Virus record (IMG/VR): IMGVR_UViG_3300025316_000018
Span: 1 to 62,598 of that record
DNA from: a virus
Taxonomy: Duplodnaviria > Caudoviricetes
DNA: 62,598 nucleotides
Reading direction: 5' to 3' (one strand)
Both the position numbers and the translations under genes were made by a program. Under the pieces are notes generated by a model. The model saw only the letters and a list, made by a program, of their open reading frames with translations. It did not search any database and was not told where the DNA came from. Shown here piece by piece: positions 10,589 to 44,537 of the stretch. Numbering within the stretch: position 1 is the stretch's first letter; every line of letters begins with the position of its first letter.

Positions 10589-10653
10589 TATAAATAGTTA
10601 CAGGTCACGAGACAGCCATCTCTACCTATTCTAACACTAAACGGAGTATCAGC
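10589..10653. promoter_or_regulatory. conserved late promoter + two-hairpin leader, copy 1
   Basis: TATAAATA then GTTACAGGTCACGAGA..TCTCTACCTATTCTAACACT..GGAGTATCAGC; homologous to 12764 and 44058. Confidence 0.8.
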
Positions 10654-11445
10654 ATGACTATATATACATTAATAGATCCAACATATTTATACATCAAACA
10701 ACACTCTGTCACTAAAAAGAAATACTTCGGTAAGACTAGTAAAACAGACCCAATAAAGTATTTAGGCTCTGGCACTTACTGGTTGAGGCACATTAAGAAA
10801 CACGGTAAACAATTCGTAGAAACTTTGTGGGTTTCTGATATATATCACGATACATCTATAGTTGATATAGCATTACATTTTTCATCGGAAAATGATATAG
10901 TAGGGTCCGATGAATGGGCTAATCTACAAGTAGAAAACGGATTGGATGGAGCCAGTACTAGATCACAAGAATCGATATCCAAAGGAAAGTCCACAAACAT
11001 TGAAAGATATGGGGTAGATAATTGGGGTAAAAGTGATGCTGGTAAAGAACATAATAGAGATTCAGTACATCATCAAATATTAAATGGTTTGCACACATCA
11101 ACAAATGGTGGTAGTGAGATTATAAAGAGAACCAACGCTAGGATGTTATCTTTAGGTACACACCCTTTTCAAGGTAAACATGGTAGTGCTCGCTCATCCA
11201 AATTAGCAGAAAAATTAATATCTGATGGTACCCACAATTTCTTATCTCAAGATCATAAAGATAATGTCAGTAAGAGTAATTATACATTATCTAACAGACC
11301 AGAATACTTAGAGTTAAAATTCATATATGAGGACCTTGGGCTGAAACAACCAAAATTCTTACACATGAAATCATTAGAAGATATAGCGATATTAAGATTG
11401 GGTGTTGTTGGACAATATTTCCCATATATCAATAAAGATTGTTAA
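10654..11445 (+). mobile_element. free-standing homing endonuclease, GIY-YIG-like (Seg-like)
   Basis: YLYIKQH..KYFGKT..YLGSG..W..HIKKHG, WANLQVENG; antisense to neighbours. Confidence 0.8.
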
Positions 11446-11635
11446 CTATCAAGATAAAGCTAACCAATCCCAATATTGCCGTCACATCAGCTATAATTCC
11501 TGCAAGGATTGACCAGTTATCTAACTCTAGTGTTCTGATTACTTTATACCATGTGTTCGTTTTCCTCTTAGAGACTTCTTTATTGCTTTGAGCCATAATA
11601 TTCTTTCCCTCATCACATCACCATCAACACATGCT

Positions 11636-12415
11636 TTATACATTTTCGATATTATTTTCTTTACTTTCATTTCTATTTGTCCACGTTACTATTTCGAATC
11701 GACCATCATAGTGTTCTACTAATGCGGTCATACTTTCTACCCAGTCACCATCATTCATATACACAATACCATCAATTTCTTTGATGTCGGCAGAGTGTAT
11801 GTGACCACAAATAATGCCGTCAAACTTTCGTTTTCTACAGTATTCTAGTATATTTGTCTCAAATTCGAATATGAATGATACAGCTGTCTTGACCTTGCTC
11901 TTGATGTATTTGCTGAGTGACCAATACCCAAATCCCATCTTGTGTCTAACCCAATTGAATTTGTTGTTCAATATTAGTATTAGATCATATCCTTTATCAC
12001 CAAGTATACTTAACCAAGGTGCTAATTTAGAAATCCCATCAAACATATCACCATGAACTACAAGATATCGTTTACCGTCTATACCAATGTGTTCTATTTG
12101 ATTTACTATTTCTATATCACCAAACCCAATATTATAAGGTATCATTGGACGAAGAAACTCGTCATGATTACCGGCAATATAGATAACTCTTGTGCCTTTC
12201 TTTGCAATCTTTAATATCTGTTGGACAACATTGGAATGGGATTGTTTCCAAAACCACTTGTTCTGTTGAATTCTCCAGACATCTAGGATATCTCCAACAA
12301 GGTATAGAGTTTCACATTTATTGTGTTTAAGGAAATCTAGAAGTTGTAGGGCCTTACAATCTCTAGTACCAAGATGAACATCCGATATAAAGATTGATTT
12401 GTAGTGTTGTTTCAT
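11636..12415 (-). CDS. calcineurin-like metallophosphoesterase, LpxH/YbbF-like
   Basis: SDVHLG, LVGDILD, GNHD, HGD, CGHIH, NDGDWVE. Confidence 0.88.
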   Translation of the reverse strand: MKQHYKSIFISDVHLGTRDCKALQLLDFLKHNKCETLYLVGDILDVWRIQQNKWFWKQSHSNVVQQILKIAKKGTRVIYIAGNHDEFLRPMIPYNIGFGDIEIVNQIEHIGIDGKRYLVVHGDMFDGISKLAPWLSILGDKGYDLILILNNKFNWVRHKMGFGYWSLSKYIKSKVKTAVSFIFEFETNILEYCRKRKFDGIICGHIHSADIKEIDGIVYMNDGDWVESMTALVEHYDGRFEIVTWTNRNESKENNIENV

Positions 12416-12512
12416 TTTGTATAGTCAACAACAAATTTAAAGAAAACTAACAATAATCCCATAGAAGCAAGCCAAGTTGCGCCTTTAATGATAAGAAGGT
12501 TTGTGTTTTTCA

Positions 12513-12737
12513 TTAGAATACCAATGTTAATAATAGTAGTGATGCTAGTATATATACCGAGAATTTGAGTTTGACATTTTTACGTGATAACTCATACTGC
12601 CCTAAAATCAGCACTCGAACATCTTCGTTACGTGCTGCCCATCTTCTCTTATAGTCATCTTCGTGGTCTTTGTATAATATCCAAGTACCTTCATTTGATT
12701 CATACATTTTTCCAAGAATTTTCTTATATCGGACCAT
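12513..12737 (-). CDS. hypothetical membrane-anchored protein
   Basis: GGAG RBS; C-terminal TM. Confidence 0.6.
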   Translation of the reverse strand: MVRYKKILGKMYESNEGTWILYKDHEDDYKRRWAARNEDVRVLILGQYELSRKNVKLKFSVYILASLLLLTLVF

Positions 12738-12763
12738 AGTTGTCTCCGTTGAGTTTTAATTTA

Positions 12764-12829
12764 TATAAATAGTTATAGGTCACGAGATTGGCGTCTCTAC
12801 CTATTCTAATACTTTCACGGAGCATCAGC
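12764..12829. promoter_or_regulatory. conserved late promoter + two-hairpin leader, copy 2
   Basis: same element as 10589. Confidence 0.8.
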
Positions 12830-12835
12830 ATTAAT

Positions 12836-13606
12836 ATGTATACAGAAATAATACCAACATATCTTTACATCAAACAACATTCAGTAACAGGTCTAAAATA
12901 TTTCGGTAAGACTACAAAACCTGATCCAATAAAATGTCTAGGCTCAGGTAAGTATTGGAAATCCCACATCAAGAAACACGGCAAAGAGCATGTGGTGACT
13001 TTATGGTGTCAGTTGTTTGATACCCAAGAATTACTAACGGATTTTGCATTATTATTTTCTGAACACTGGGATATTGTTAATTCTAAAGTGTGGGCCAATC
13101 TAATATTAGAAAATGGATTAGATGGTACAATACCAGGAACTATTTTCGGTCCAAGATCGGATGAAACAAAAGCAAAAATATCAGCATCCCATATAGGTAA
13201 AATAGTTTCTGATGAAACAAAAGCAAAACTATCAGAAATAAACACTGGGAAAGTTGTTTCCACCGAAACAAAAGCAAAAATATCAGCATCTAATACAGGA
13301 CAGAAAAGGACGGAAGAAACCAAGGCAAAAATGTCAGCATCTCGCATAGGTATGAAAGTTTCTGATGAGGTGAGAATTAACATGTCTAAACCAAAATCAG
13401 ACCAACATAAAGTAAACTTAACTATTGCTCAAAAATTAAGGTGGATCAATAATCCTTGTACTGATGAAACTAAATTAAAAATGTCTAATATCAAAAAGGG
13501 AATACCAAAACGAATAATAGAATGTCCGCAATGTGGTAAATCTGGTGGAGAACCACAAATGTGTCGATGGCATTTCAATAATTGTAAATCCCTTAGTGAC
13601 GATTAA
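12836..13606 (+). mobile_element. free-standing GIY-YIG-like homing endonuclease with NUMOD3 repeats
   Basis: N-terminal domain paralogous to 10654; repeated SDETKAKIS; CPQC...WHFNNCK tail; start ATG 12836 or ATT 12830. Confidence 0.85.
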
Positions 13607-13810
13607 TCACCATTGGTGGATTGCACCGATTATTACAGCTAAACAGGTAACTATATGTAGTAGCACCCACATTGTTCTAATAACCAAACTTAATCTGGCT
13701 TCTATTTGAGTAAGGATAGGGACTGACGGTTCATCGTGGTCAGTCTCACCCATCATATGGTCAAAACTTCTAGCCCACACCCTTTTCCATCTAATCTTTC
13801 TTAATCCCAT
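13607..13810 (-). CDS. small membrane protein
   Basis: C-terminal hydrophobic helix. Confidence 0.55.
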   Translation of the reverse strand: MGLRKIRWKRVWARSFDHMMGETDHDEPSVPILTQIEARLSLVIRTMWVLLHIVTCLAVIIGAIHQW

Positions 13811-14026
13811 AACCCCTGCCAGTAAGTACCCATTAATCTGAAACCATTATTCATACGGTCTTGGTGCTTTCTCATACCTTCAAAATCTGTTTTCCTAGTA
13901 TGGTTTGGACCATACCCCATACCACCGTCATTATCAAATGTTAAATCAGATTCACCTGTACGGTATTGATCTTCCCATTCAATAGTATATTGAGTAAACG
14001 CCCAAAATTTTCTTATATAATTTCAT
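13801..14026 (-). pseudogene. out-of-frame fusion remnant: MKLYKKILG start joined to the C-terminal part of a paralog of 14494..15105
   Basis: manual translation WAFTQYTIEWEDQYRTGESDL...GFRLMGTYWQGLWD*, with no start at its 5' end. Confidence 0.75.
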
Positions 14027-14226
14027 TCGTCTAATCCTATTCGTTTTCTGAAAGCAGCATATTCAGCATCTGAACATATACCAACTGGCATCCTTGCAAA
14101 TTCATCACAAGTCTCAGGTTGGGCGAGAAACTCTACGATTTCATTTCGTATCTTGTCGTTACACTCATAATTAATGTATTGTGTATCCCTGAGTATTTTT
14201 CTTAGTAACTCTCTTTCTTTACTCAT
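14023..14226 (-). CDS. MSKERELL/LAQPE family protein
   Basis: shared N-terminus and LAQPE anchor. Confidence 0.75.
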   Translation of the reverse strand: MSKERELLRKILRDTQYINYECNDKIRNEIVEFLAQPETCDEFARMPVGICSDAEYAAFRKRIGLDE

Positions 14227-14492
14227 TGTTTTCTCCAGTTAATTGAGACTTCAAATACACCCTCGCAAAAGCCATTTTTATCTACAGGGATACCGCACTC
14301 ATCAGCATTAAGATTGTCATAGAAATCTACCATCAAATCACTTATCTCATCGTCATAATATGCTTTTTGAAAGATTGGCTCTTGCTCAGGTTGGGCGAGC
14401 AGTTCTTCAACTACATCAATAAATGAGCCTGTAATCCCATACCCTTCAAAATGCTCAAGTGCACACTTCAATAAATCTCTTTCTTTACTCAT
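14223..14492 (-). CDS. MSKERELL/LAQPE family protein
   Basis: MSKERDLL...ELLAQPEQEP. Confidence 0.75.
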   Translation of the reverse strand: MSKERDLLKCALEHFEGYGITGSFIDVVEELLAQPEQEPIFQKAYYDDEISDLMVDFYDNLNADECGIPVDKNGFCEGVFEVSINWRKQ

Positions 14493-14493
14493 A

Positions 14494-15105
14494 TTATGTC
14501 CATAAAGTTTGATATAACTCACCGAATAATCTAAATCCGTGTTGCATACGCTTTTGCTGTTTTCTCATGCCATCATAATCAGTTTCCATAGTATGATTTG
14601 GTCCTCTTTTCACCTCATTACCTTCAAATACAAGATCAGCATCCCCTGTTCTATACTGTTCTTCCCAATCAATATTCAGTTGACCAAATGCAAATATCAT
14701 TTCATCTAATGCCCATTCAAACCTCTTGTGGTAATTATCATCCACATCCCATTCATCTTGTACTCTTGGAGAGTTCATACTCTTTAGATGATCCGGAACC
14801 AATAGATCAGAAACAAACGGTGAACCATGCTTCTGTTTTTTCATTTCTATTAACATAGGTAACACAATCAATCCAAGTGTTTCTGGAAAATTCCACACAT
14901 CAAACTTATCAATCTTTACATAAGAAATGCGTGGATGAATTGTGTCGAGAAACTTTCTTAGGTTCTCGCAGATATTGTGCAGCCAATCAGGTGGTACTTT
15001 ATCGTAGATTTCATCTTCGGTTTTCCAGAACAACACCTTTTCCATTATAGAGAAACTGCTCAACCAGTGGTCGCGGTAATTACTCAGATATACGTGCATT
15101 GCCAT
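14494..15105 (-). CDS. conserved phage hypothetical protein
   Basis: 203 aa, RBS, YVKIDKFDVWN..KHGSP..WALDEMIFAF. Confidence 0.8.
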   Translation of the reverse strand: MAMHVYLSNYRDHWLSSFSIMEKVLFWKTEDEIYDKVPPDWLHNICENLRKFLDTIHPRISYVKIDKFDVWNFPETLGLIVLPMLIEMKKQKHGSPFVSDLLVPDHLKSMNSPRVQDEWDVDDNYHKRFEWALDEMIFAFGQLNIDWEEQYRTGDADLVFEGNEVKRGPNHTMETDYDGMRKQQKRMQHGFRLFGELYQTLWT

Positions 15106-15136
15106 AACTCCTTAGTACATGTAATGGTTTTATTTA

Positions 15137-15436
15137 CTAATATTTATCAATAGTAATAGATGTGCCTTCTGGAAAATCCTTTGTCCAATCTTCAAGCATA
15201 CCAGCCGTATACGCACTCATACCTTGACTGTCTTTGAAGCATTTATAGATACTGCCAGATTCATTATGGAATAGGTAGTGTCCCTCATTTTCTACAGTTT
15301 CTGTAATGCCACTGCTGCATCTCCAACTATCACTACCCGCAATCCCACCATACCAAGATGCTAACACTTTTTGTATGGTTGTATCTGGTGTCTTTATTTC
15401 AATTACCTCCCATTTATCAGGGTAATAGTCAGTCAT
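15137..15436 (-). CDS. conserved phage hypothetical protein
   Basis: PDKW..KVLASWYGG..DSWRCSSGIT..SGSIYKC. Confidence 0.75.
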   Translation of the reverse strand: MTDYYPDKWEVIEIKTPDTTIQKVLASWYGGIAGSDSWRCSSGITETVENEGHYLFHNESGSIYKCFKDSQGMSAYTAGMLEDWTKDFPEGTSITIDKY

Positions 15437-15620
15437 CGTTTCCACCACACATTCTATAGGCGGCACTACTTTTATCTACCCCTTGGCTACCGGCATAGCG
15501 GTGATCATCTTCGTAATACTTAGTAACTCCATTAGGGGTATCCACCGCATAGCCACCGTTGTTTAATTTTCTATAAGTCCCTTGTTTTTTATTGGCTTCT
15601 TCTCTAAAATTCTTTTTCAT
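15429..15620 (-). CDS. hypothetical protein
   Basis: overlapping operon packing. Confidence 0.55.
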   Translation of the reverse strand: MKKNFREEANKKQGTYRKLNNGGYAVDTPNGVTKYYEDDHRYAGSQGVDKSSAAYRMCGGNDD

Positions 15621-15868
15621 ATATGCAATCCTATTGTATTTTCAGCATTCGCTCCAGATAACTCTCTCATTCGTTTCAGAAGAATATTTAAAGGTTCAAT
15701 TTTCATACATCTACAGCAACTAATTGTTATAGGATGAAACTCTCTACCAGAATCAGATTCTTCCCAAGTATCAAGGTAATTTTCAAAGAAATCCTTGACA
15801 AGGGATTTCAGTTCTATTGTATTGTTGTATGCTTCATATAGTTTCATCATTATTACCTCATTCCTCAT
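15617..15868 (-). CDS. hypothetical protein
   Basis: operon packing. Confidence 0.6.
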   Translation of the reverse strand: MRNEVIMMKLYEAYNNTIELKSLVKDFFENYLDTWEESDSGREFHPITISCCRCMKIEPLNILLKRMRELSGANAENTIGLHI

Positions 15869-16347
15869 TCCTCATCTCTAATCCCAGCCCAATAACAGCT
15901 AGCAATTCTTGCTTGCTTATAAGCATGGAACATGTCAGTGGTAGCTTCTTCACTCAAAGGCTCACGTTTTGGCTGCGAGTATTTTCTGTAGGTATGGTCG
16001 TGCATCGCCATCATTGCGTTAGCAAACCAACAAAGCATCGCATCGTCATCTACATTACAGTCTGGATTTGTTTCTCTAAAAAACCTCGTCCAAGCCAATG
16101 CGTCTGGATTGTCGTGGATTTTCATGTCATACGGAGGGGATTCTTCAATCTGCTCAGGTGAATAGCTATCTCCATTCGACCGAAGACCTCTAAAATCTAT
16201 CTTAGACTCTTGCTCAGGTTGGGCGAGTAATTCCTGTATTTTATACAGTGTCGCTGCTAAAACACCGAAATTACCATTGCTAACAGCCACTTCACCTGCG
16301 GCAAAATGACTCATTACCTCTTTCAACAACTCTCTTTCTTTACTCAT
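15865..16347 (-). CDS. MSKERELL/LAQPE family protein
   Basis: MSKERELL...ELLAQPEQE. Confidence 0.75.
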   Translation of the reverse strand: MSKERELLKEVMSHFAAGEVAVSNGNFGVLAATLYKIQELLAQPEQESKIDFRGLRSNGDSYSPEQIEESPPYDMKIHDNPDALAWTRFFRETNPDCNVDDDAMLCWFANAMMAMHDHTYRKYSQPKREPLSEEATTDMFHAYKQARIASCYWAGIRDEE

Positions 16348-16621
16348 TATCAACCTCAAAGTGTTTCTTCAATAAGTCGGCAAAGTATTCTTTACGATGC
16401 CTATCTGTGCTGTTCATAATAACATCAATACATTCTTGTACCACAAATTTACTAGTGGGTGTGTGCCAACCAAAATCATATCGTTCTTTGTACGGTTTGT
16501 CACCTGTCATTTGCCAGAATGGTATTAGGTTATCACTAATATCACAATCTTTATTAGGACAGTATTGACCAATACCTGGAGCATCCTTCAATTCTATTTC
16601 GCATTTTGGGCAAGTTATCAT
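16340..16621 (-). CDS. zinc-ribbon hypothetical protein
   Basis: CPKC...CPNKDC. Confidence 0.6.
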   Translation of the reverse strand: MITCPKCEIELKDAPGIGQYCPNKDCDISDNLIPFWQMTGDKPYKERYDFGWHTPTSKFVVQECIDVIMNSTDRHRKEYFADLLKKHFEVDNE

Positions 16622-16780
16622 ATCATTCCTTATACTTTTCGGTTTGCCATACAAACATAAAAATTAAAGACAATATTGCCAATACAAACATAGTTTTAGG
16701 AAATAATGCAATAATAAATGCTGAAAGCAAAAAGATCATGAAGATACCAATAGTCTTTATTGCTGTAATTAAAATTTTTT

Positions 16781-17188
16781 TCATATTGTATCCAAATAAA
16801 GGTGTGGTTTCTGACTAATACGTAATTCGATTCTTTCGTGTACTATATTATCATCTTCGAGTGTTGATGTCCAGTCATTATAGAATAAAGAATTAAATCC
16901 ATCAAATGCAGTACGTCTACTTCTATCTGGATTGTATCCACGCCTATCCATTTCATCACACAATGTATCAAATCTGTGTTGAAGGAAGGTGAGCTTATTG
17001 TAGAAGAATTTTACATGTCCGGTGTTCAGCGTGAACTTTTTGGGTATACCGGAAAGAATCATAAGATGAGATCTGGCCATTAAGCTTCTACTCAATGATG
17101 CCGGTACCATCGTTATCTCTCTCAATTCAGCAATCAAATGGAGTCTGTGTAGGAGTTTTGGATCTATATTTGAATTGATGCGTGTCAT
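16781..17188 (-). CDS. denV: pyrimidine dimer DNA glycosylase / endonuclease V
   Basis: MTRIN, HLIAELREI, IPKKFTLNTGHVKFFYNKL, EMDRRGY. Confidence 0.93.
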   Translation of the reverse strand: MTRINSNIDPKLLHRLHLIAELREITMVPASLSRSLMARSHLMILSGIPKKFTLNTGHVKFFYNKLTFLQHRFDTLCDEMDRRGYNPDRSRRTAFDGFNSLFYNDWTSTLEDDNIVHERIELRISQKPHLYLDTI

Positions 17189-17217
17189 AATAACTCTCTT
17201 TGTGTAAAGTATTAGTC

Positions 17218-17246
17218 ATTATAACACGAATATCTAATAAAGTAAA
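17218..17246 (-). promoter_or_regulatory. sigma70-type promoter upstream of denV
   Basis: TTTACT-17-TATAAT. Confidence 0.6.
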
Positions 17247-17253
17247 GACTTAT

Positions 17254-17520
17254 TCAGTTTTCTTTTACTTCAAATTTAACAGGTCTTTCATACATGATTT
17301 CTTTTGAAGCATTCTTTCTATTTTTAGTAAAATTAAATATCCTACCATCTTCACAAATTTGTACAACGTCAAATTCAATGATTTGCGGTTCTGCTGGTGT
17401 TTTAATACTTATCATAAATTGTTCTGAGAGACCCTCTGGTAGAGTTCCAGTCCAAGTTACTTGATTAATCTCTTTACTATAATATTCACCAAATTCATTT
17501 TTATCATATAGAGGAATGGC
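17254..17520 (-). pseudogene. 5'-truncated fragment resembling YcnI/DUF1775 C-terminal half
   Basis: QVTWTGTLPEGLSEQFMISIKTPAEPQIIEFDVVQICEDG; no upstream start. Confidence 0.5.
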
Positions 17521-17674
17521 AAGAGACGAATCATATTCGGTTGATAGAATTGATTCGTCTCTTGGTTACACTTTTGATAATCTTCAGATCATATCTGCAA
17601 AAGCAAATAGAGCCAAAAATAATTTAACAGAAGAAGAGCTTCAAAAATTTGCTTCGTTTATCAACAATTCCTGA
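17516..17674 (+). pseudogene. 5'-truncated HNH-like endonuclease fragment
   Basis: SVDRIDSSLGYTFDNLQIISAKANRAKNN matches C-half of 20776..21096. Confidence 0.7.
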
Positions 17675-17781
17675 TATTAATGACACAAATTCTCATTATT
17701 ATTTAAATTTTAAGTCAACAAAATCAGATGCAATTGCTTTGTGTATTTGCCTTCAGCAAACACAGTGTTATCTTCTATCAT

Positions 17782-18368: not shown

Positions 18369-18406
18369 ATTATTTACTCCTTTGTTGTATATATATGTTA
18401 TGTATA

Positions 18407-22633: not shown

Positions 22634-22710
22634 TGGGGGATCTGTTCGGGTATGATCCGAAACTCTCAACCGTTATGAGCGGTGTGTTTTACCAATTAAA
22701 CTACAGATCC
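22634..22710 (-). tRNA. tRNA with CAT anticodon (Met or Ile2), atypical T-loop
   Basis: GGATCTG/CAGATCC acceptor, ACCG-CTCATAA-CGGT, TTCGG-ATCATAC-CCGAA, CCA end. Confidence 0.75.
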
Positions 22711-22810: not shown

Positions 22811-22884
22811 TGGAGCCAATACTCAGAATCAAACTGAGGTCTAAAGATTACAAGTCAATTGTATTATCACTATACTATATCGGC
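22811..22884 (-). tRNA. tRNA-Thr(TGT), degenerate
   Basis: GCCGATA/TATTGGC acceptor, CTTGTAA loop, CTCAG/CTGAG T-stem, CCA; two U-U mismatches in anticodon stem. Confidence 0.65.
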
Positions 22885-23087: not shown

Positions 23088-23282
23088 GTGCCGTCTTCAA
23101 CCTCTTTACAGTCTTATGACTTACGGCATTGCCAATCCTCGCACATGTTTTTAGTATGAGCAATAATAAGTGCTTTCTACCACTATGCGTCCATAATGTT
23201 TCGACTTTCAGCATTGCCGTACCACCCGATGTGTGCATAGTTTAGAGGCATGGATGGTAAATTAGTTATAAAGTGGACATTT

Positions 23283-36231: not shown

Positions 36232-36328
36232 TTTAAAACCTCATTATTAAACGATGTCGAATTAACATCAATAATAGCACACTACGTACCATTATTGATG
36301 CTCTATCATTACAATAGAGCAACATCAC

Positions 36329-37336: not shown

Positions 37337-37421
37337 TTTATAACCTCATTATAATTGTATTAATAATTGACAATCAATTATTGCTATGGATACCCACAAA
37401 GATACCCATAACACTAATAAA

Positions 37422-38147
37422 TCACATCCTAACAACAAATCCGCTTACATCCTTTTTAGCCTTTCCTTTAGCGTATAACGCCACAACACCCGCACCATCT
37501 AAAAAGCGCAAGTCCGTTTTGTCACCGTCAAGGGTGCGCATACCATCAAACATAGATGGAATATTACCCACCTTATCAAACACCACTGCAAAACGCTTGA
37601 ATACTGGATTCAGTTTTGCCTTAGTGTATACATCAATAAACTTCTCTACACCACTATAAGAAAACGTCAAATCGTAATTTGAAGGAATCCCATTGCGAGT
37701 AGGTATTTTAGTATAATCATAAAATTGTACATCTTTAAAGTATTCCATAATATTAGAGTAAATTACACCATCAAACAAAAAGGCGTACTTCTCCCACTGT
37801 ATATCACTTGTACCATTAAGGCGTACCACTGGAATCAATCCCAGTCTTTTGGCGCGTGTTATCAGTCTTTTTATAGACTTTACCATATTGATGAAAAATA
37901 TGGCTCTATCATTAAACCACATAGTAGTCTTTGACAAGCGCGCCAATTGTACATTAGAAAACGCACCTCTGCCTGCCGTATTAAGGCAAGGTTCAGCACA
38001 TCCAGCTAATAAGGCAAATGGACATACATCACCGAAACCACCACCATCACTAGGAGTGAGATAGAGTATTCCTGTAAGATAGCCTTGTGCCTGACCCTTT
38101 ACGGTCTTGGCATCAGCACTCATGGATAGCATCATTTTATAGCTCAT
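37422..38147 (-). CDS. GP88-like protein
   Basis: CP....C...CL.TAGRG, VRLNGTSD, FYDYTK, NYDLTFS, DGDKTDLRFLD. Confidence 0.7.
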   Translation of the reverse strand: MSYKMMLSMSADAKTVKGQAQGYLTGILYLTPSDGGGFGDVCPFALLAGCAEPCLNTAGRGAFSNVQLARLSKTTMWFNDRAIFFINMVKSIKRLITRAKRLGLIPVVRLNGTSDIQWEKYAFLFDGVIYSNIMEYFKDVQFYDYTKIPTRNGIPSNYDLTFSYSGVEKFIDVYTKAKLNPVFKRFAVVFDKVGNIPSMFDGMRTLDGDKTDLRFLDGAGVVALYAKGKAKKDVSGFVVRM

Positions 38148-38838
38148 TTTATAACCTCATTATAAATTATTACCTATACATCATTAAAACAATGACATAG
38201 GCAATAATCCCTAAAATCTAGGCATTATTGCGCCATCTGTCACATGGCTTGAGGTATAAAAATTCCGTATTGTTAAAGAGCTTAATTTTACACAAGACTT
38301 TCTACAAGGCGTAACTATGCCTATACACGAACTATCATTGTGTGATAGATTCCACGGCAAGGCTATACTCTTGCAACTCATAGACACTACTATAGTGCTA
38401 TGGCGTGGGGCTATCATTAGTTTTTAAAGAGCTAGTTCAAAACTTCTGAACTAGAGGACTTACAGTTTAGCACAATGACAACTTAAAGCAATTTTATCGT
38501 TTTTACTGTACCGCACACAGGATCTAATTGTGTATAAGTGCTTGAATTATAACAAAAAGTATTTTTATGTGTGTCCGCAATGATTGCGAATCACTTTTAA
38601 TATAAAACTGTATAATGCCTTATAAAACAGTGTGTTAGCGCGTTATTGTGTGTTAGAGTCAGCATCCTGTTCTCGTTTTGTTCTCTATTGGCGCGTGTAT
38701 TGTCGCCATAAACAAGTAGTAAGTGATTTTAGTCTCTTAGCACGATTATAAGCACGTTTCAGCACTTAGCAATACCATAGTAGCCATAAACGTATAACAG
38801 GCGTTAAAACGCAATTTTAACGCCTTGGCGCGCGTTTG

Positions 38839-38940
38839 CACAAGCACAAGCACAAGCACAAGCACAAGCACAAGCACAAGCACAAGCACAAGCACAAGCA
38901 CAAGCACAAGCACAAGCACAAGCACAAGCACAAGCACAAG
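38839..38940. repeat. (CACAAG)17 microsatellite
   Basis: counted directly. Confidence 0.97.
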
Positions 38941-39193
38941 CACGCGCGTAGCAATAAACGTGCCAATTGCTAATTTTAGCCATTTTTTGGCACGTTTTGA
39001 AAATAGCGTTTTTTGCCGTGGTAGCACGGTTTTGTACTAGGTAATGCTACGGTATAGCAAAACCGTAAAAACGCCTTAAAACGCAATTTTAATGCCTTCC
39101 TGATCTAACGTGAAAAGACACTATTTCGGGTGTTTTTACGATATATCTTTACATGGTGTTGATAATGTGGTTATGGTTTTGTGAAATAAAGTA

Positions 39194-39222
39194 TTGACAT
39201 GGTTTTAATAATGTGCTATATC
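39194..39222 (+). promoter_or_regulatory. possible sigma70 promoter firing into the repeat block
   Basis: TTGACA-17-TATATC with TG extension; no real ORF downstream. Confidence 0.4.
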
Positions 39223-39245
39223 ATGCCAAGTTTTGCACGTTGTAT

Positions 39246-39261
39246 TGTTCCACATGGAACA
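39246..39261. promoter_or_regulatory. parS: parS-like palindrome (1 mismatch)
   Basis: TGTTCCACATGGAACA. Confidence 0.65.
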
Positions 39262-39268
39262 GTGTTCT

Positions 39269-39451
39269 GCACTGTATTGGTGCGGTGTAAAGTTTGTGCT
39301 GAACGGTTCTGCACTGTATTGGTGCGGTGTTCCACGTGGAACAGTACTAAAAGTGGGAATTTTTGCGCGTTTGCACTGTATTGGTGCGGTGTTGCACTGT
39401 ATTGGTGCGGTGTTGCACTGTATTGGTGCGGTGTTGCACTGTATTGGTGCG
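39269..39451. repeat. 21-bp iteron-like repeat GCACTGTATTGGTGCGGTGTT, six copies
   Basis: starts at 39269, 39311, 39373, 39394, 39415, 39436 (last partial). Confidence 0.95.
39328..39343. promoter_or_regulatory. parS: perfect parS palindrome
   Basis: TGTTCCACGTGGAACA. Confidence 0.75.
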
Positions 39452-39466
39452 TGTGAGCGGGAACGC

Positions 39467-39513
39467 GAATGGTAATGGTAATGAGAATGGTAATGAGAAT
39501 GGTAATGAGAATG
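39467..39513. repeat. 12-bp tandem repeat AATGGTAATGAG (about 3 copies)
   Basis: direct reading. Confidence 0.9.
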
Positions 39514-39569
39514 ATTCGTATTCGTATAGAAAAGTTCGATTCTGGCTCAAACTCTTATTCTCGTAACTA

Positions 39570-39690
39570 TTTTTCTACACAATTTTCCAGTACATTTCGA
39601 ATTTTTTTCTACACAATTTTCCAGTACATTTCGAATTTTTTTTCGCAGAAATTTTCAGTACATTCCGAATTTTTTTTTCGCAGAAAATTT
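39570..39690. repeat. T-rich ~34-bp degenerate tandem repeat
   Basis: TTTTTCTACACAATTTTCCAGTACATTTCGAATT twice, then two variant units. Confidence 0.85.
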
Positions 39691-39699
39691 GTGCCCAGA

Positions 39700-39748
39700 G
39701 GAGCGAAGTGAACTCCTTGGGGAGCGAAGTGAACTCCTTGGGGAGCGA
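39700..39748. repeat. 21-bp tandem repeat GGAGCGAAGTGAACTCCTTGG (2 copies + partial)
   Basis: each unit has a GGAG/CTCC hairpin. Confidence 0.9.
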
Positions 39749-39815
39749 TGGATATCTAACAAGAAGTGCTGCACTGTGTTGTACAATGCAGCACATGTAT
39801 CGAGGGTATGGGTGA

Positions 39816-40097
39816 TTAATCGAATATAGCCACGACATCATCTTCATTTACAATAAAGAATGTGTCATCATTAACGTTTGTGGTAGTTGCTTCGTTCTTC
39901 TTAGCTAGTTGCCAATTAGGTAGGATGATATCGCCTTCTTTGACGAATATGCACCCAGCCCCTACTGCTAGTACTCTACCTTTTGTTACTTCTTTTGGGT
40001 CAGCACGGGACAGTACGATACCGCCCTCGGTGATCATTTCTTTTTCGAGCATTTCTACTACGATGTTTTTGTTTATTGGTTTCAGGAAGTGTGCCAT
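39816..40097 (-). CDS. groES: GroES-like co-chaperonin (functional analog of T4 gp31)
   Basis: LKPINKNIVV, TEGGIVL, GRVLAVGAG, VKEGD, NEDDVVAI. Confidence 0.85.
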   Translation of the reverse strand: MAHFLKPINKNIVVEMLEKEMITEGGIVLSRADPKEVTKGRVLAVGAGCIFVKEGDIILPNWQLAKKNEATTTNVNDDTFFIVNEDDVVAIFD

Positions 40098-40098
40098 A

Positions 40099-40293
40099 TT
40101 AATCTCTTAGTAGTTTAGGTGCGGATTCGCCATCATGAACGTAGTCTTCTGCGATGGTGTATGGGTTATCGGCGATACCGACATTTCTGTTGTGTACTAG
40201 TACATTATCCTCATAGAAGTTAATTAGGTATCCGGACGGGGTATCCATTATTTCGGATCGTTTATTATTGTGTTGGTACGACATTGGTTTCAT
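40099..40293 (-). CDS. hypothetical protein
   Basis: operon packing. Confidence 0.6.
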   Translation of the reverse strand: MKPMSYQHNNKRSEIMDTPSGYLINFYEDNVLVHNRNVGIADNPYTIAEDYVHDGESAPKLLRD

Positions 40294-40300
40294 ATATTGC

Positions 40301-42301
40301 CTATGATATCATATTAATAAAACGGTTCAGTACGACTCTATTAGTAGTTCTTTGTTTTGAGAACTTAGTAAATGAGGATACCAGACCACGGGTTGTTGCA
40401 TTTTCTTTCACTTTTAGTTCTGCATCTTCAGCTGTATCCATGCCATCAGCTCTTAGTAGGTAGTATTCATCGTAACCGGCGGTAGTAACGACTTTATAGT
40501 TATCTCTTCGGAACTGTGCTTTAATAGCATCATGATCAATTGTATCTGGGAACAGATATTCAATCGCTGATATTGATCGTCTATCCACGACATAGAACCC
40601 TATTATATTACACTTTGTGATGGACTTCAACAGTTTAAGGTAAGCTGATGTGACTAGTCTACCAACATGCGGAGATTTAATAGTTTCTTGGTGTTTTGAT
40701 TTTGGGTCGCGTATCACGAGTGCTTTAAATGTGTCGGGGTCGGGGTCGATACCCAGACCTATTCTGTCTATTCCATCGTTATAGTGTATGGATCTGTTAC
40801 CATCTGATTCGCCATCCGTGAGGAACACTGTGTTAACGATTTGCAGATTATAGTCTTTTTTAAACTTTGGTACTACTGTCATTGCAGTTACTATAGCGGC
40901 ATTTAGTGGAGTACACCCCAGAGAGAACCATTTAGGAGCTGATTGGTACTCATGCATGTTTCTTGATAAGATAAGCAATGATTGTACGGCATAGTTATAT
41001 TCTCTCGTGGTCATTTTATTCGATAGGATGTTCAGCATATTAACTGACGAGAATATTTCCAGATCCCCGTCTTTGTGTTTTTGTTTACTTTCAGCACATC
41101 TATCGGTAAATGCGTATACCTCGAATGGTATATTAACTTGTTTGCAGAACATGACCAGATTGAGCAATTGTTTAACGGTATTATGCAGTGTATTCTGCAT
41201 AGAACCTGACCAGTCTATGAACAGCACTAATCCATGAGATTTACCATTGGGCACGACCGCTAGTTTCTTGAACACGTCATCCGCGAACTTATACGAGAAT
41301 ATAGCATCCATATTGAGTTCACCGGTTTTGGCGACAGAAGCACGTTTTAGTTGTTGAGCATTCTTTTTCAGTTCGAACTCTTTCACTAGGTATGCCACGA
41401 CTTTCTTTGATTCTGTTCTGAAAGTTTGGTACAGGTCATTATTCAGCACTAATCGTTGTTGATAATGTTCTCGGTAGTATTCTGGGTGTATTAGATCGAC
41501 ATATGTGCGATAGTTTCGCCACACGATTTTATGGTCTACTATTACTTTATCCATATCCACGGTTGGTATATTTCCGTAGTAGTATTCAAAATTAGCCTCT
41601 GAGTATAGTTGTTCTTGGTTTTTTCGTAATGCGTTATCGGTTTCTGACTCTACACGTTTTTGATAGTCGCCTGATTCACCATCGCCATCCCCATCACTTT
41701 CTTGTTCCTCTCCTTCATCATCATTTGGATTGGTGGGTTCTTTATCTTCTATTTCGAGATAATCCATCACTTTTCTTGCTACTATTAGCACCTCATCTAT
41801 TGTGGTACAATTCAAGATCTCTTCCATCAGGTCTTGTTCTATTGTTGTGATGAAATCTATACCACTATTAACACCGAGCTTTATGTACATATTAGCTCTA
41901 TCGATGAAATTTAGTTCATTGATATTAGTATCTTCTGTGCCGAAGAAGTTTCTCTGGACAAGATCATTATAGCCTATGATGAATGGTTGTTTTAGTCCTG
42001 GATATTTGGACTTGATCATTTTTTCTATACGAGCATCTTCTATCACATTTAGCACAGAGAATGTGATGTCTAGTTCTTTAGATCGTGTAAGGAGTTCTGG
42101 TGGTGTGAACAGTGCATGACCGACTTCATGGCCCATGAACAGATCATATAATTCTGGGATAATCTTATCGTCTAGTATAGGTATTGTTAGAATACGGTTA
42201 ATCACATCGAAAGATGCTGTTCTAACTTTACGTTGTTCAACGATAAGATTTTCTGATGCCATTAATTTGGCGAGGATTGATTTGGACTGTACTAATTTCA
42301 T
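40301..42301 (-). CDS. metallopeptidase-like + vWA (CobT-like) protein
   Basis: HEVGHALFT, NVIEDARIE, DWSGSM, TPLN, LTDGE. Confidence 0.85.
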   Translation of the reverse strand: MKLVQSKSILAKLMASENLIVEQRKVRTASFDVINRILTIPILDDKIIPELYDLFMGHEVGHALFTPPELLTRSKELDITFSVLNVIEDARIEKMIKSKYPGLKQPFIIGYNDLVQRNFFGTEDTNINELNFIDRANMYIKLGVNSGIDFITTIEQDLMEEILNCTTIDEVLIVARKVMDYLEIEDKEPTNPNDDEGEEQESDGDGDGESGDYQKRVESETDNALRKNQEQLYSEANFEYYYGNIPTVDMDKVIVDHKIVWRNYRTYVDLIHPEYYREHYQQRLVLNNDLYQTFRTESKKVVAYLVKEFELKKNAQQLKRASVAKTGELNMDAIFSYKFADDVFKKLAVVPNGKSHGLVLFIDWSGSMQNTLHNTVKQLLNLVMFCKQVNIPFEVYAFTDRCAESKQKHKDGDLEIFSSVNMLNILSNKMTTREYNYAVQSLLILSRNMHEYQSAPKWFSLGCTPLNAAIVTAMTVVPKFKKDYNLQIVNTVFLTDGESDGNRSIHYNDGIDRIGLGIDPDPDTFKALVIRDPKSKHQETIKSPHVGRLVTSAYLKLLKSITKCNIIGFYVVDRRSISAIEYLFPDTIDHDAIKAQFRRDNYKVVTTAGYDEYYLLRADGMDTAEDAELKVKENATTRGLVSSFTKFSKQRTTNRVVLNRFINMIS

Positions 42302-42332
42302 ATATCACCGATAGATTCATAATGTATGGGTT

Positions 42333-42360
42333 ATTATACCATGTATTAGCACAGTGTCAA
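42333..42360 (-). promoter_or_regulatory. sigma70-type promoter
   Basis: TTGACA-16-TATAAT. Confidence 0.65.
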
Positions 42361-42363
42361 GTT

Positions 42364-42786
42364 TTATGGTAGTAGGTCTGGAAATGCTTCTTTAATGAAT
42401 TCATAATCTAGACCAGGAACACCTAGATCTTTGTTAAAGATACCCATGACCACTTCTGCTTCTCTTGGTTCAATTGCTTCCAGAAACTGTGTTAATAGTT
42501 CTTCTCTTCGTTGTGGTGTTAGTTGTTCTGCTTGTGGGTGACCTTTTTGGAACAGATATAGTCTACGGATTTCGGTAGACAGTTGTGTAGATGCCATACC
42601 AGGAACCACATCTTTCGGTACATATTTGTGTGGTACTTCTTTGATCAGCCAATGATGATCTGGGTGATAAGCAAGTACAAACACATCAACGAGAGTTTTA
42701 GAGAGATTCTTCTCTACCACTTTCATCTTATCATGACGGGTTGGCGCATTTTCGATTTCGTCTAGCACTTCATAAATATTTTTCAT
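42364..42786 (-). CDS. conserved T4-like hypothetical protein (rnh neighbour)
   Basis: RRLYLF..RREELLTQFLEAIEPREAE..EAFP. Confidence 0.8.
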   Translation of the reverse strand: MKNIYEVLDEIENAPTRHDKMKVVEKNLSKTLVDVFVLAYHPDHHWLIKEVPHKYVPKDVVPGMASTQLSTEIRRLYLFQKGHPQAEQLTPQRREELLTQFLEAIEPREAEVVMGIFNKDLGVPGLDYEFIKEAFPDLLP

Positions 42787-43631
42787 TAAAATTCATCCAT
42801 CACTGATATAAGGTTTCGTAGTTTATATTGAACCATATAGTCCAATAGGTGTTTTCTTGGTGCAGGTTTTGTTTCTTCGTAGCATTTGATGATATTCTGT
42901 TTAATATGTGTTGGTATAAAAGACAGGTCTATCATCTGTTGGTTTCGTATAAAGTTATTCTTTTGTGTTTCATCTTCCCATTCTGTATGGTTTTCGTACA
43001 GAAGTTTCTCAAGGATGCCTTTTGTCACTGATTTCTGTTTAATATCCATAACGAACGTATCACTTGGCGATAGCACATTTGGTACACCATCGCCACGATC
43101 GCCGCGAATAATCTTCTCTTTAAGTTCTAGAGTAGGGTTTTCTGATTTCAGGAACTTCTTTTGCATTGGTGAGTATTGCTTAACGTTTTTGTGGCTATGC
43201 AATTGCAGAAAGTCTTCATCACCGGATAGTATTAGTATCTTTTGTGTTGGTGCGTGTCTTGGTACCAAAGTCCCGATGATATCATCTGCTTCGGCCATAT
43301 CCACATCGATCACCTTGTATGGGAAATAGTCTTTAAGTTCTTGTCTGAACTTGGTCATCATTTCAAACACAAGTTTCCAATCAAGGTCTGATTTAGCACG
43401 AGATTTTGCTCGACACGCTTTGTAGTATGGGAACTCGGACTTGCGCCAATACGTTCTGTTATCACAGCAAATGACCACTTCACCATACTCTTTGAATGTT
43501 TTCACATGTCCACGTATCATATTAAGTATCATATACCGAATATCATTTTCGGTGGGTTTGCTCAGATTCTTCGGTGATATTTGTGGCATGATACCCGATA
43601 TTAGTATCTGGTTTAGATCAATTAATAACAT
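42786..43631 (-). CDS. rnh: T4-type RNase H / 5'-3' exonuclease
   Basis: LIDLNQI, YWRK..YYKACR, EADDII, SGDEDFLQL, GDRGDGVPN. Confidence 0.93.
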   Translation of the reverse strand: MLLIDLNQILISGIMPQISPKNLSKPTENDIRYMILNMIRGHVKTFKEYGEVVICCDNRTYWRKSEFPYYKACRAKSRAKSDLDWKLVFEMMTKFRQELKDYFPYKVIDVDMAEADDIIGTLVPRHAPTQKILILSGDEDFLQLHSHKNVKQYSPMQKKFLKSENPTLELKEKIIRGDRGDGVPNVLSPSDTFVMDIKQKSVTKGILEKLLYENHTEWEDETQKNNFIRNQQMIDLSFIPTHIKQNIIKCYEETKPAPRKHLLDYMVQYKLRNLISVMDEF

Positions 43632-43639
43632 AATATACC

Positions 43640-43975
43640 TTACTCAAAAATAGAATCAAAAAATATGTCTGATGTTGTGGTTTTCCTTCCGATGATACCA
43701 TAGAACCCACACTTTATTAGGTGCTCTAGGTATACTACGGGGTCCGCTAATATAGCATCGAAACAGTCTTCGATCACCATAACACCGTCTTCGTTTGGTT
43801 CTATGAACACTATCTCATAGTTCTTACCAAGTTTAGAACCTCCAACGCTTTCGCCTGGATCTTTGTATGTGAATGTTTCTATGTGTGTATGTTCATCCAG
43901 TTCTTCGTGCGGTGAAAAGATAAACCCATCGTATGGGGTTTCTGCCAATTTTCTGATGTTGTCGAGTAGACTCAT
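43640..43975 (-). CDS. hypothetical protein
   Basis: GGAG RBS; promoter upstream. Confidence 0.7.
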   Translation of the reverse strand: MSLLDNIRKLAETPYDGFIFSPHEELDEHTHIETFTYKDPGESVGGSKLGKNYEIVFIEPNEDGVMVIEDCFDAILADPVVYLEHLIKCGFYGIIGRKTTTSDIFFDSIFE

Positions 43976-44004
43976 ACTGCTCCTATAGTTTCACATGAAT
44001 TAAT

Positions 44005-44033
44005 ATTATAACTCATATGTTGGTATTTGTCAA
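44005..44033 (-). promoter_or_regulatory. sigma70-type promoter
   Basis: TTGACA-17-TATAAT. Confidence 0.7.
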
Positions 44034-44057
44034 CAAATTTACACATATTCTATGTGT

Positions 44058-44123
44058 TATAAATAGTTATAGGCCACGATATTAGAGTATCCGCCTATTC
44101 TAACACTTTCAAGGAGCATCAGC
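44058..44123. promoter_or_regulatory. conserved late promoter + two-hairpin leader, copy 3
   Basis: same element with compensatory changes. Confidence 0.8.
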
Positions 44124-44537
44124 ATGAATATATATACGATATTATCGAGTAAGCCACACAACACACATTATCTAATTAGATACATAAATTTCATTAATAG
44201 TCGAGACAATAATAAAACTGGATACACAGAAAAACATCATATTTGCCCAAAAGCAATGGATCTATTTCCTGAATATGATAATCTCAGAAGGAATCTATGG
44301 AATTCTGTTGTACTAACAGCAAGAGAGCACTTTATAGCCCATTGGTTGCTATGGAAGGCATTTCCAAAAACTACTATGTCAACAGCGTTCATATTAATGG
44401 GTAGAAAGAATTCCAATCGTTTAAATAGTAAATCTTATCAATCATTAAAAGAAGAATATTCGATAATAAATAGTGAATCTCAAATAGGAAGTTATATGTG
44501 CCTGATTTATGAGGGCATTCTTGGCACTAATAGTTAG
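44124..44537 (+). mobile_element. free-standing HNH homing endonuclease (MobE-like), possibly C-truncated
   Basis: YTEKHHICPK..NSVVLTAREHFIAHWLL. Confidence 0.8.

Follow-up and report, generated by a model that had tools for sequence, protein, structure and literature searches.

The viral record IMGVR_UViG_3300025316_000018 (62,598 nucleotides, a 62.6-kb stretch analysed over its full length and called the window here) carries three genes for free-standing homing endonucleases that share a structured leader, a module of ~95 base pairs whose pairing across the nuclease ribosome-binding site is complete on the antisense strand only. The window represents ~40% of a genome, and its replicative helicase is ~62% identical to the helicases of T4-like cyanomyoviruses. 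All three nuclease genes lie on the plus strand, and the open reading frames (ORFs) that flank each of them lie on the minus strand. A preliminary description, made from the letters of the window alone, had placed the leader ahead of two GIY-YIG-like genes and one HNH gene; re-reading the letters at each site finds the three copies exactly where they had been placed (Table 1). The gene assignments need some qualification. The product behind copy 3 does match a PHROG HNH/homing endonuclease family and that behind copy 2 carries a NUMOD3 domain; for copy 1 the PHROG match is weak, and the GIY-YIG-like call comes via similarity to the copy 2 product. In the case of copy 2, the ATG usual in the family reads ATT, and the start is shifted to 12836.

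The three copies are distinct from their surroundings. The 16-mer TATAAATAGTTAYAGG is found three times on the plus strand of the window and never on the minus strand (shuffle expectation 0.16; none of 100 shuffles reaches three), and a covariance model built from relatives of the leader matches the window at exactly the three copies, with scores of 65-71 bits and a runner-up at 10.8 bits. The octamer TATAAATA, which opens each copy, is by itself not enriched in the window, with 10 occurrences against 9.66 expected.

Table 1. Features of the three leader copies and of the nuclease genes behind them, in window coordinates.
Feature	Position	Strand	Remarks
Copy 1, sense late-promoter-type octamer	10589..10596	+	TATAAATA; 3 nucleotides ahead of hairpin 1
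Copy 1, hairpin 1	10600..10629	-	Outer stem 10600-10605/10624-10629; R:Y 10607/10623; inner stem 10609-10612/10619-10622
Copy 1, hairpin 2 over ribosome-binding site	10631..10652	-	Arms 10631-10638/10645-10652; folds on minus strand only; anti-Shine-Dalgarno at loop
Copy 1, reverse octamer in codons 2-5	10659..10666	-	TATATATA on minus strand; one base off TATAAATA; 6 nucleotides from hairpin 2
Copy 1, endonuclease gene	10654..11445	+	263 amino acids; GIY-YIG-like N-terminus; weak PHROG match, intron-like endonuclease
Copy 2, sense octamer	12764..12771	+	TATAAATA
Copy 2, hairpin 1	12775..12804	-	
Copy 2, hairpin 2	12806..12828	-	Arms 12806-12813/12821-12828
Copy 2, reverse octamer	12835..12842	-	TATACATA on minus strand; one base off
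Copy 2, Seg-like endonuclease gene	12836..13606	+	256 amino acids; NUMOD3 domain; PHROG homing endonuclease
Copy 3, sense octamer	44058..44065	+	TATAAATA
Copy 3, hairpin 1	44069..44098	-	Two compensated changes relative to copies 1 and 2
Copy 3, hairpin 2	44100..44122	-	Arms 44100-44107/44115-44122
Copy 3, reverse octamer	44129..44136	-	TATATATA on minus strand; one base off
Copy 3, HNH-type homing endonuclease gene	44124..44537	+	137 amino acids; PHROG HNH/homing endonuclease

Read along the coding strand, the module consists of a late-promoter-type box NATAAATA, 3 nucleotides of spacer, hairpin 1, the linker TCTAA, hairpin 2 across the ribosome-binding site, a further 6-7 nucleotides, and the motif TATTTAT in codons 2-4 of the nuclease gene. 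Hairpin 1 has a 6-base-pair outer stem, a C-R-C internal loop on its 5' side, a 4-base-pair inner stem and a loop of 6-7 nucleotides, with a single Y that pairs with the R of the internal loop. Hairpin 2 is 8 base pairs long, with the arms CTAANNNN and NNNNYCAG. The two hairpins of the window copies, and the A.C mismatches that turn into G.U pairs on the other strand, are as the preliminary description had them. For instance, hairpin 1 of copy 1 pairs on either strand, its sole C.A mismatch becoming G.U on the minus strand. The finer anatomy of hairpin 1 differs from that description, in that the outer stem is 6 rather than 4 base pairs long (ATAGGT/ACCTAT), the internal loop holds the extra R:Y pair, and the terminal loop, thought to be free in sequence, has a loose YTGCMR tendency.

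To place these copies in a family, four pattern scans of IMG/VR were used, which returned 8, 16, 52 and 45 stretches. A structural regular expression run over all fetched loci (designated by L numbers) found 101 places with 72 distinct fragments, from which five were dropped to leave 67 distinct leader copies. Four of the five were chance matches lacking the conserved inner features (L042:6720, L043:1585, L053:3720 and window:55519), and the fifth, L033:4355, is a hairpin remnant without hairpin 2 or a gene. Five pattern matches of the 45-stretch scan without hairpin 1 (L060, L061, L068, L070 and L083) were also left out. The copies fall into two forms. In the short form (49 copies aligned), the Shine-Dalgarno sequence runs from the loop of hairpin 2 into its 3' arm, and the ATG comes 1-2 nucleotides later. 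In the long form (15 copies aligned), the loop of hairpin 2 comprises the Shine-Dalgarno sequence plus an extra 6-base-pair helix, and the 3' arm, AUGNCCAG, includes the start codon. Three copies with a long loop and the short-form 3' arm (L051, L017:1453 and L076:7985) are in neither alignment. The covariance model, built from the 49 short-form copies, yields 93 matches across 82 loci; nearly all short-form copies score 55-80 bits, with one extra match at 47.1 bits, and the long-form copies score 26-52 bits under this short-form model.

Nearly all copies front free-standing homing endonuclease genes of several families, and the tie between leader and endonucleases that had been proposed from three copies thus extends to the wider set. 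The downstream proteins match PHROG homing endonuclease families 314 (29 proteins), 655 (22) and 3339 (8), as well as HNH families and, once, endonuclease VII; by Pfam they carry NUMOD3 (19), DUF7487 (8) and GIY-YIG (4) domains. Across 54 full-length downstream proteins, only I3 and Y4 are held in common, at a mean column identity of 10%. The other part of the proposal, that the cassettes run antisense to their neighbours, is true of all three window copies and is not universal: with both neighbours called at 53 loci by a crude ORF calling (one neighbour is unknown in 15), 31 cassettes are antisense to both neighbours, 15 are co-oriented with them and 7 are mixed.

The alignments support a conserved fold. 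In the short form, 15 of the 19 pairs change on both sides, and in the long form 16-17 of 25 do so (MAFFT alignments); in neither case does any of 500 shuffles reach the score, and controls in which the pairing is slid are only 28-46% paired (29-45% in the short form). The covariation suggested by the three window copies is therefore a property of the wider alignment. The outer stem of hairpin 1 occurs in 23 different forms and is Watson-Crick in 400 of 402 cells, and its inner stem, counted as the 4-base-pair core plus loop-closing extensions present in a few copies, is Watson-Crick in 274 of 281 cells. Hairpin 2 has compensatory changes in four of its eight pairs, and the extra helix of the long form, which was constrained by no retrieval pattern, shows both-sided change in five (antisense count) or six (sense count) of its six pairs.

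Which strand folds is indicated by the wobble pairs. Over the 929 cells of the short form, 98.9% are paired in the antisense reading (97.7% in hairpin 2' and 99.8% in hairpin 1', the prime denoting the antisense fold), compared with 89.5% in the sense reading, and the difference is concentrated in hairpin 2, which on the sense strand is paired in 79.2% of cells. For the long form, the corresponding figures are 98.4% and 86.6%. Across the two forms, sense pairing reaches 96.8-98.2% in hairpin 1 and just 74-79% in hairpin 2. The deficit is made up of sense A.C mismatches that read G.U on the antisense strand. Thus the short form has ~90 antisense G.U pairs against two on the sense strand, and the long form ~47 against two, bearing out the G-U strand bias noted in the window copies. 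The same asymmetry is seen outside hairpin 2. At the R:Y pair of hairpin 1, the sense reading gives G-C 31 times, A-U 20 times, A.C 16 times and G.U never, and in the extra helix of the long form there are nine antisense G.U at one pair and five elsewhere, with none on the sense strand. The sense strand is polymorphic at R (28 A and 21 G in alignment A1), and both wobble states are seen within six shared outer-stem classes, so that these changes represent repeated events or recombinants. At position 4 of hairpin 2, copies with A have either U (48) or C (18) opposite. When new stretches with G at this position of the 5' arm were fetched, all seven had C opposite and none had U, as expected if the fold is on the antisense strand; a similar search for G at position 3 of the 5' arm found none among the extra stretches. 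More generally, the asymmetry between G.U and A.C can reveal which strand of a DNA element bears the selected fold.

Folding predictions agree with this assignment. De novo prediction with RNAalifold on the antisense strand recovers both hairpins, with 18 pairs at -17.6 kcal/mol for the short form and 25 pairs at -19.2 kcal/mol for the long form. On the sense strand it recovers hairpin 1 only (10 and 11 pairs), and the ribosome-binding site is left unpaired. Folding of single sequences gives the antisense strand as the more stable in 66 of 67 copies, with hairpin 2 averaging -5.1 kcal/mol on the antisense strand and -1.4 kcal/mol on the sense strand; in the window copies, the values for hairpin 2 are 0.0 kcal/mol sense and -4.3 to -5.7 kcal/mol antisense. 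In the antisense folds of both forms, an anti-Shine-Dalgarno sequence lies at the loop of hairpin 2', as the preliminary description had proposed. One stretch of DNA can, it appears, be selected to fold on one transcript and to stay open on the other.

The second unusual element of the module is the motif TATTTAT(A) at the start of the nuclease genes, which is the reverse complement of the core of a T4-type late promoter. It reads TATTTAT in 47 of the 67 copies, TATATAT in 12 and TATGTAT in three, and is absent in five. The motif lies 6 nucleotides from hairpin 2 in 42 of 62 copies and 7 nucleotides away in 12, and the base that follows it is A in 41 of 62. In the long form, where the ATG is inside hairpin 2, the motif falls at codons 5-7, and two copies (L082 and L044) carry it in a different reading frame; the spacing thus follows hairpin 2 rather than the ATG. 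Synonymous codon choice is frozen across the motif. The tyrosine is encoded by TAT in 54 of 54 genes (82% in gene bodies), the isoleucine by ATT in 42 of 54 (40% in gene bodies), and in 53 of 54 the preceding codon has T as its last base. All 15 copies of the long form have AGC as codon 3, against 4.4% of serine codons in gene bodies. A putative promoter of 8 base pairs can apparently be concealed in coding sequence and dictate how unrelated proteins begin.

Two other explanations of the motif were considered and rejected. Long-range pairing of the upstream TATAAATA with TATTTATA downstream is contradicted by the persistence of TATTTAT in copies without an adjacent octamer, and by TATATAT and TATGTAT variants that, by eye, are uncompensated upstream. 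A GIY motif or protein tag behind the M-x-I-Y start was rejected as the main cause, as the GIY-YIG motif proper is found deeper in the sequence and proteins of the HNH and zinc-finger types begin in the same way; in addition, the long-form I-Y is at residues 6-7, and in two copies the DNA motif persists in a different frame.

T4 late promoters are 8 base pairs long, need no -35 element, can lie on either strand and tolerate single deviations, and their box begins at -13 (PMC2988020), so that the RNA starts ~6 nucleotides after the box. The box NATAAATA is a documented late promoter of cyanomyoviruses (PMC2984593). It adjoins hairpin 1 in 56 of the 67 copies, the octamer being 2-6 nucleotides upstream with a spacer of 3 nucleotides in 39 of the 56. 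Applied to these spacings, the rule would put the first nucleotide of the sense RNA at the third position of hairpin 1 and that of the antisense RNA at the G directly ahead of hairpin 2'. One relative carrying the leader, L029, encodes Gp23, a T4 scaffold protein, UvsY and UvsW, and its six ATAAATA sites all lie on the coding strand, including one 31 nucleotides ahead of the scaffold gene. No gp55-like late sigma factor was found among 10 small window ORFs compared with PHROGs, the window holding only ~40% of the genome.

Two leader-bearing nuclease genes (5831-6693 and 7708-8475) also lie in the T4-like late region of L029, behind the major capsid gene and in the interval from uvsY to uvsW. 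Within its last codons, the first of them has an ATAAATA that stands 24 nucleotides ahead of the next gene and may be an embedded promoter for it.

At the far side of the module, 11 copies without an adjacent NATAAATA have an A-run in its place, which on the antisense strand gives a canonical AUUUUUU tail behind hairpin 1'; most of these 11 have TATAAATA 9-35 nucleotides further upstream. This arrangement would be compatible with a terminator.

Taken together, these features suggest a portable module with two facing promoters, in which the selected fold is that of a short cis-antisense RNA covering the nuclease ribosome-binding site. On present evidence we consider this reading about as likely to be right as wrong; the interpretation given in the preliminary description, of an expression or antisense-silencing module shared among selfish nucleases, is supported, in that none of the checks on covariation, G-U strand bias, the tie to endonucleases and Rfam went against it. 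The module accompanies free-standing genes from many homing endonuclease families, in T4-like phages that are related to cyanomyoviruses. Its sense late promoter, NATAAATA, would initiate nuclease transcripts only a few bases from hairpin 1 and leave the ribosome-binding region downstream unpaired, given that the G.U pairs of the antisense fold read A.C on the mRNA. The second late-promoter-type octamer, in nuclease codons 2-4 (TATTTAT[A] on the sense strand), points back over the start codon and would start an RNA 0-1 nucleotides ahead of hairpin 2', with the anti-Shine-Dalgarno at its loop. We infer that this RNA would run through hairpin 1' to a U-rich tail, with a length of ~65-75 nucleotides, and that its likeliest role is base-pairing to the exposed ribosome-binding site in the nuclease mRNA, that of its own copy and possibly those of sister copies, thereby keeping nuclease synthesis low.

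A number of points weigh against this reading. The copies were gathered by sequence patterns: those of two scans (16 and 45 stretches) fix most of hairpin 2 and permit only C/T at two positions, where sense G.U therefore cannot show, and the pattern of the 52-stretch scan fixes positions 1-4 of the 5' arm of hairpin 2. The counts of paired and wobble positions are of cells and not of independent events, and the single-sequence z-scores are modest, at -1.4 to -2.1 on the antisense strand. With regard to the ends of the proposed RNA, the main class of copies has 3 nucleotides and then UAUUUAUA after hairpin 1', which is not a clean U-run, and a simple terminator scan, whose rule demands an uninterrupted stem, flags nothing at the window copies and does not pick out hairpin 1'. 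The reverse octamers of the window copies, TATATATA and TATACATA, are one base off the consensus, as are those of 15 of the 67 copies, and TATTTAT could instead be kept for an AU-rich translation start. Finally, at 31 of the 53 loci an antisense transcript would arise without a dedicated promoter and could serve the neighbouring genes. Because the patterns fix much of hairpin 2, the strand bias has to be judged on the parts that were free, namely the R:Y pair, the extension helix of the long form, the 3' arm, and positions 5-8 in the loci of the 8- and 52-stretch scans. At positions 5-8 in these loci, at least 14 cells are A.C and none is G.U (counted by eye).

In an alternative reading, the antisense structure acts in cis on opposing transcripts, as a terminator or insulator, or as a 5'-leader or processing element of the neighbouring gene, and serves to limit the damage of insertion rather than to control the nuclease. 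Several observations would suit such a role. Cassettes antisense to both neighbours are the commonest arrangement (31 of 53), the minus-strand neighbour of window copies 1 and 2 starts within ~40 nucleotides of hairpin 1', and the A-run copies give hairpin 1' its canonical U tail. Endonuclease genes of T4 are described as embedding promoters for downstream host genes (PMC2988022), and the ATAAATA of L029 at the 3' end of a nuclease gene is placed right before the next gene. However, the fold and the wobble bias are equal in both cassette orientations, including the 15 co-oriented loci that have no neighbour gene downstream on that strand; a structure serving only the neighbours' transcript would not explain this. 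The anti-Shine-Dalgarno in the hairpin 2' loop of both forms would be needless for a mere terminator, and a strong terminator would be polar on the neighbour. We regard this alternative as unlikely.

It is less likely still that the leader works on the sense strand only, with a late promoter followed by a stabilising or regulatory 5' hairpin 1, a ribosome-binding region selected to remain open, and an antisense hairpin 2 whose pairing is incidental. Such an arrangement would account for the almost equal pairing of hairpin 1 on the sense strand, for a 3-nucleotide spacer that puts the late transcript start inside the outer stem and so makes hairpin 1 5'-terminal, and for the view of Dassa et al. 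(2009), who took such hairpins as sense translational regulators (PMC2677866). Selection for openness alone, however, would not yield the compensatory changes in hairpin 2 and in the extension helix. Furthermore, the R:Y pair of hairpin 1 itself obeys antisense rules, with its 16 A.C and no G.U, and hairpin 1 cannot be 5'-terminal in those copies whose promoter lies a further 12-35 nucleotides upstream.

Slightly more doubtful again is a fold of the bottom strand as single-stranded DNA, acting as a recombination, replication or mobility signal, with the leader serving mainly as a homology patch for nuclease swaps. DNA hairpins tolerate G.T too, the leader is common to unrelated nucleases, and the PeSL elements of T4-like phages provide a precedent for shuffling at regulatory repeats (PMC4122927). 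There is also one case of exchange at the leader. The leader of L010:560-900 (minus strand) is a chimera, as a comparison with window 10440-10720 and 12700-12960 shows: through the flank, promoter and hairpin 1 to the TCTAA linker it is identical to window copy 1, and from the beginning of hairpin 2 on into the gene it is identical to window copy 2; the ~2.2 kb between the window copies, with nuclease 1, a metallophosphoesterase gene and a 74-amino-acid ORF, is gone, and the nuclease ORF is reduced to 79 amino acids. Leader-to-leader recombination therefore occurs, in this one case, and together with downstream proteins that share only I3 and Y4 the chimera supports the earlier suggestion of a module swapped among nucleases. 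The leader doubles as a recombination patch that reshuffles nuclease cassettes. As the main function of the fold, however, a DNA signal meets several difficulties: a cruciform would treat both wobble types alike, and the bias demands one strand only; the cassette occurs in either orientation relative to its neighbours, which leaves no constant leading- or lagging-strand role; features of transcription are present, in the form of the U-rich tail and of a promoter-like octamer with fixed spacing; and homology patches need no covarying stems.

That the strand bias is an artefact of pattern sampling, shared ancestry and transition bias is very improbable: two scans could not retrieve sense G.U at two positions, many copies are closely related, and cells rather than events were counted, but the bias persists where no pattern fixed the bases (the R:Y pair, the extension helix, the 3' arm), both wobble states occur inside the six shared outer-stem classes, the sense polymorphism at R exists, and the position-4 prediction held in all seven newly fetched stretches.

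Some copies of the leader appear to have outlived their nuclease. At L033:4355 (plus strand), hairpin 1 and the start of a long-form hairpin 2 are present with no nuclease gene behind them, which looks like a remnant after nuclease loss. In six other cases (L067, L085, L040, L004, L006 and L064), the leader is intact or nearly so, and no open nuclease frame of 60 or more amino acids follows; the start codon of one reads ACG. These are decaying cassettes that keep the leader.

To our knowledge, the means by which free-standing homing endonuclease genes are stopped from harming their phage have been worked out in only a few T4 cases, each relying on a sense-strand hairpin. In the T4-type control of I-TevI, I-TevII, I-TevIII, segB and the Aeh1 mobE, a late promoter is embedded in a sense hairpin that sequesters the ribosome-binding site, and this hairpin buries the site in early or middle read-through transcripts (PMC2988022). 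Late transcripts of this type, which begin inside the hairpin, are without its 5' arm. The leader resembles the I-TevI type in having a late promoter, TATAAATA, immediately upstream of a selfish nuclease gene, together with an RNA structure in the leader, and the apparent purpose in both is restraint of nuclease synthesis. In contrast to the T4 type, the promoter of the leader is outside the hairpin, 3 nucleotides ahead of a hairpin 1 that leaves the ribosome-binding site untouched, and full pairing across that site is found on the antisense strand only. The difference from the sense hairpin of I-TevI, already remarked on in the preliminary description, holds for the whole family, as RNAalifold predicts no sense pairs over the ribosome-binding region and hairpin 2 on the sense strand averages just -1.4 kcal/mol. 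In addition, a co-oriented transcription unit is available at just 15 of 53 loci, and there is no co-oriented upstream transcript at 31 of 53. These differences suggest a distinct and portable solution, common to many nuclease families in uncultured T4-like phages.

Dassa et al. (2009) described hairpins and TATAAATA upstream of free-standing GIY-YIG and Vsr-like endonuclease genes in the 'fractured genes' of ocean metagenomes (PMC2677866). The Dassa hairpin is like the leader in being a conserved 5' hairpin with a late-promoter box and two conserved stem motifs in T4-like environmental phage DNA, and their locus gp41-7, with a hairpin and no nuclease, has a counterpart in L033:4355 (PMC2677866). 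Matched by its description and not by sequences, it is probably hairpin 1 of the present family. Their interpretation is of a sense-strand translational attenuator, whereas the fold found here is antisense; the relevant passages of that paper contain no hairpin 2, strand bias or reverse promoter, and the word 'antisense' does not occur in its main text (PMC2677866). Literature searches turned up no account of either an antisense fold or a reverse promoter in connection with endonuclease genes, and both appear to be new.

The leader can also be compared with PeSL cassettes, CfrI and a catalogue of candidate structured RNAs. PeSL cassettes of T4-like phages combine an early sigma-70-type promoter with a terminator stem-loop and flank genes in hyperplastic regions; like the leader, they are short composites of promoter and stem-loop that are repeated in a genome and are associated with recombination at the copies, for the leader in the one case of L010 versus the window (PMC4122927). 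The box of the leader, NATAAATA, is however of the late type, with no conserved -35/-10 pair, and PeSL are not tied to endonuclease genes in their published description, which in its relevant passages reports no strand-specific fold or reverse promoter (PMC4122927). CfrI is a ~225-nucleotide antisense RNA of cyanophage S-PM2 that was detected experimentally and overlaps a homing endonuclease gene and psbA (PMC2984593). The parallel is an antisense RNA, here predicted, opposite a homing endonuclease gene in a T4-like cyanophage; CfrI is longer, is linked to psbA, and has no known function according to the passages describing it (PMC2984593). In the S-PM2 genome the covariance model has no match up to E 10, and CfrI is thus no homologue that the model can detect. 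A 2023 catalogue of 8,495 candidate structured RNAs from IMG/VR intergenic regions relies on this sequence collection too and on evidence of the same type; its main text ties no motif to homing endonucleases, the term occurring only in a reference title, and the leader motif may be listed among its candidates under an anonymous number (PMC10690425).

Five named phages were searched with the covariance model, and none had a copy. For named phages, megablast of 5 kb gave no match, and blastn with the leader gave none or merely short spurious pieces. On four named cyanomyoviruses (S-SRM01, S-PM2, B23 and ACG-2014f), the covariance model has no significant match, the top score being 15.5 bits at E 0.39. 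In prokaryote genomes there are 22 pattern matches, about the number due to chance by a rough estimate of our own, with a top model score of 32.5 bits, and all were taken as chance.

IS10 RNA-OUT, transcribed from pOUT against pIN, and the sar RNA of phage P22 are short cis-antisense RNAs made from a promoter that faces the promoter of their target. The leader would share with them facing promoters <100 base pairs apart, the reverse one being putative, and a short stem-loop RNA, here predicted, directed by complementarity against the 5' end of a gene that endangers its carrier, ribosome-binding site included. Complementary bases are exposed in a loop, and the antisense strand has its own conserved and covarying fold, with 98.4-98.9% of cells paired. 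The leader differs in having no sequence relation to either RNA, in its target, a homing endonuclease rather than a transposase or antirepressor, and in an RNA that is predicted only. Its promoters are of the T4 late type, and it is because such promoters are 8 base pairs long and lack a -35 element that the putative reverse promoter fits in three codons.

A more far-reaching version of the antisense reading is possible, and we put it forward tentatively. Here the ~95 base pairs with two facing T4-late promoters would form a self-contained circuit, in which an RNA of ~70 nucleotides acts in trans on all nuclease mRNAs of the phage and the G.U pairs are kept for the sake of an open site on the mRNA. 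Trans action of one copy's RNA would be possible because the leader is conserved between copies, and the M-x-I-Y start of unrelated nucleases would be due to the reverse promoter in codons 2-4. If true, this would amount to copy-number control for selfish nucleases, analogous to IS10 multicopy inhibition.

Several minor observations concern the window itself. A fourth endonuclease gene, of the SegE-type GIY-YIG family (E 1.4e-31; 44534-44959, minus strand), is without the leader module and is oriented like its neighbours; at their 3' ends, this gene and nuclease 3 overlap by 4 nucleotides. Just beyond leader copy 3 is a perfect sigma-70 consensus promoter (TTGACA, 17 nucleotides, TATAAT; 12/12) at 44033-44005 on the minus strand, aimed at the gene at 43975-43640, and a 7-base-pair inverted repeat at ~44043-44059 lies between this promoter and the leader copy. 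The ORF at 7467-9536 (minus strand) encodes a protein of 689 amino acids with a CHASE2 sensor (E 1.7e-35) and an adenylate/guanylate cyclase catalytic domain (E 6.6e-19), which is unusual for a T4-like phage. With respect to known RNA families, the leader matches none in Rfam: a search of 3 kb around each window copy found nothing at the leaders at E up to 10, and a scan of the whole window against Rfam 15 at the gathering threshold returned only two tRNAs and abiF. The abiF match (23221-23257, minus strand) is barely over the threshold, at 39.7 bits for a gathering score of 37, and the two tRNA genes are located near it, at 22637-22710 and 22814-22884.

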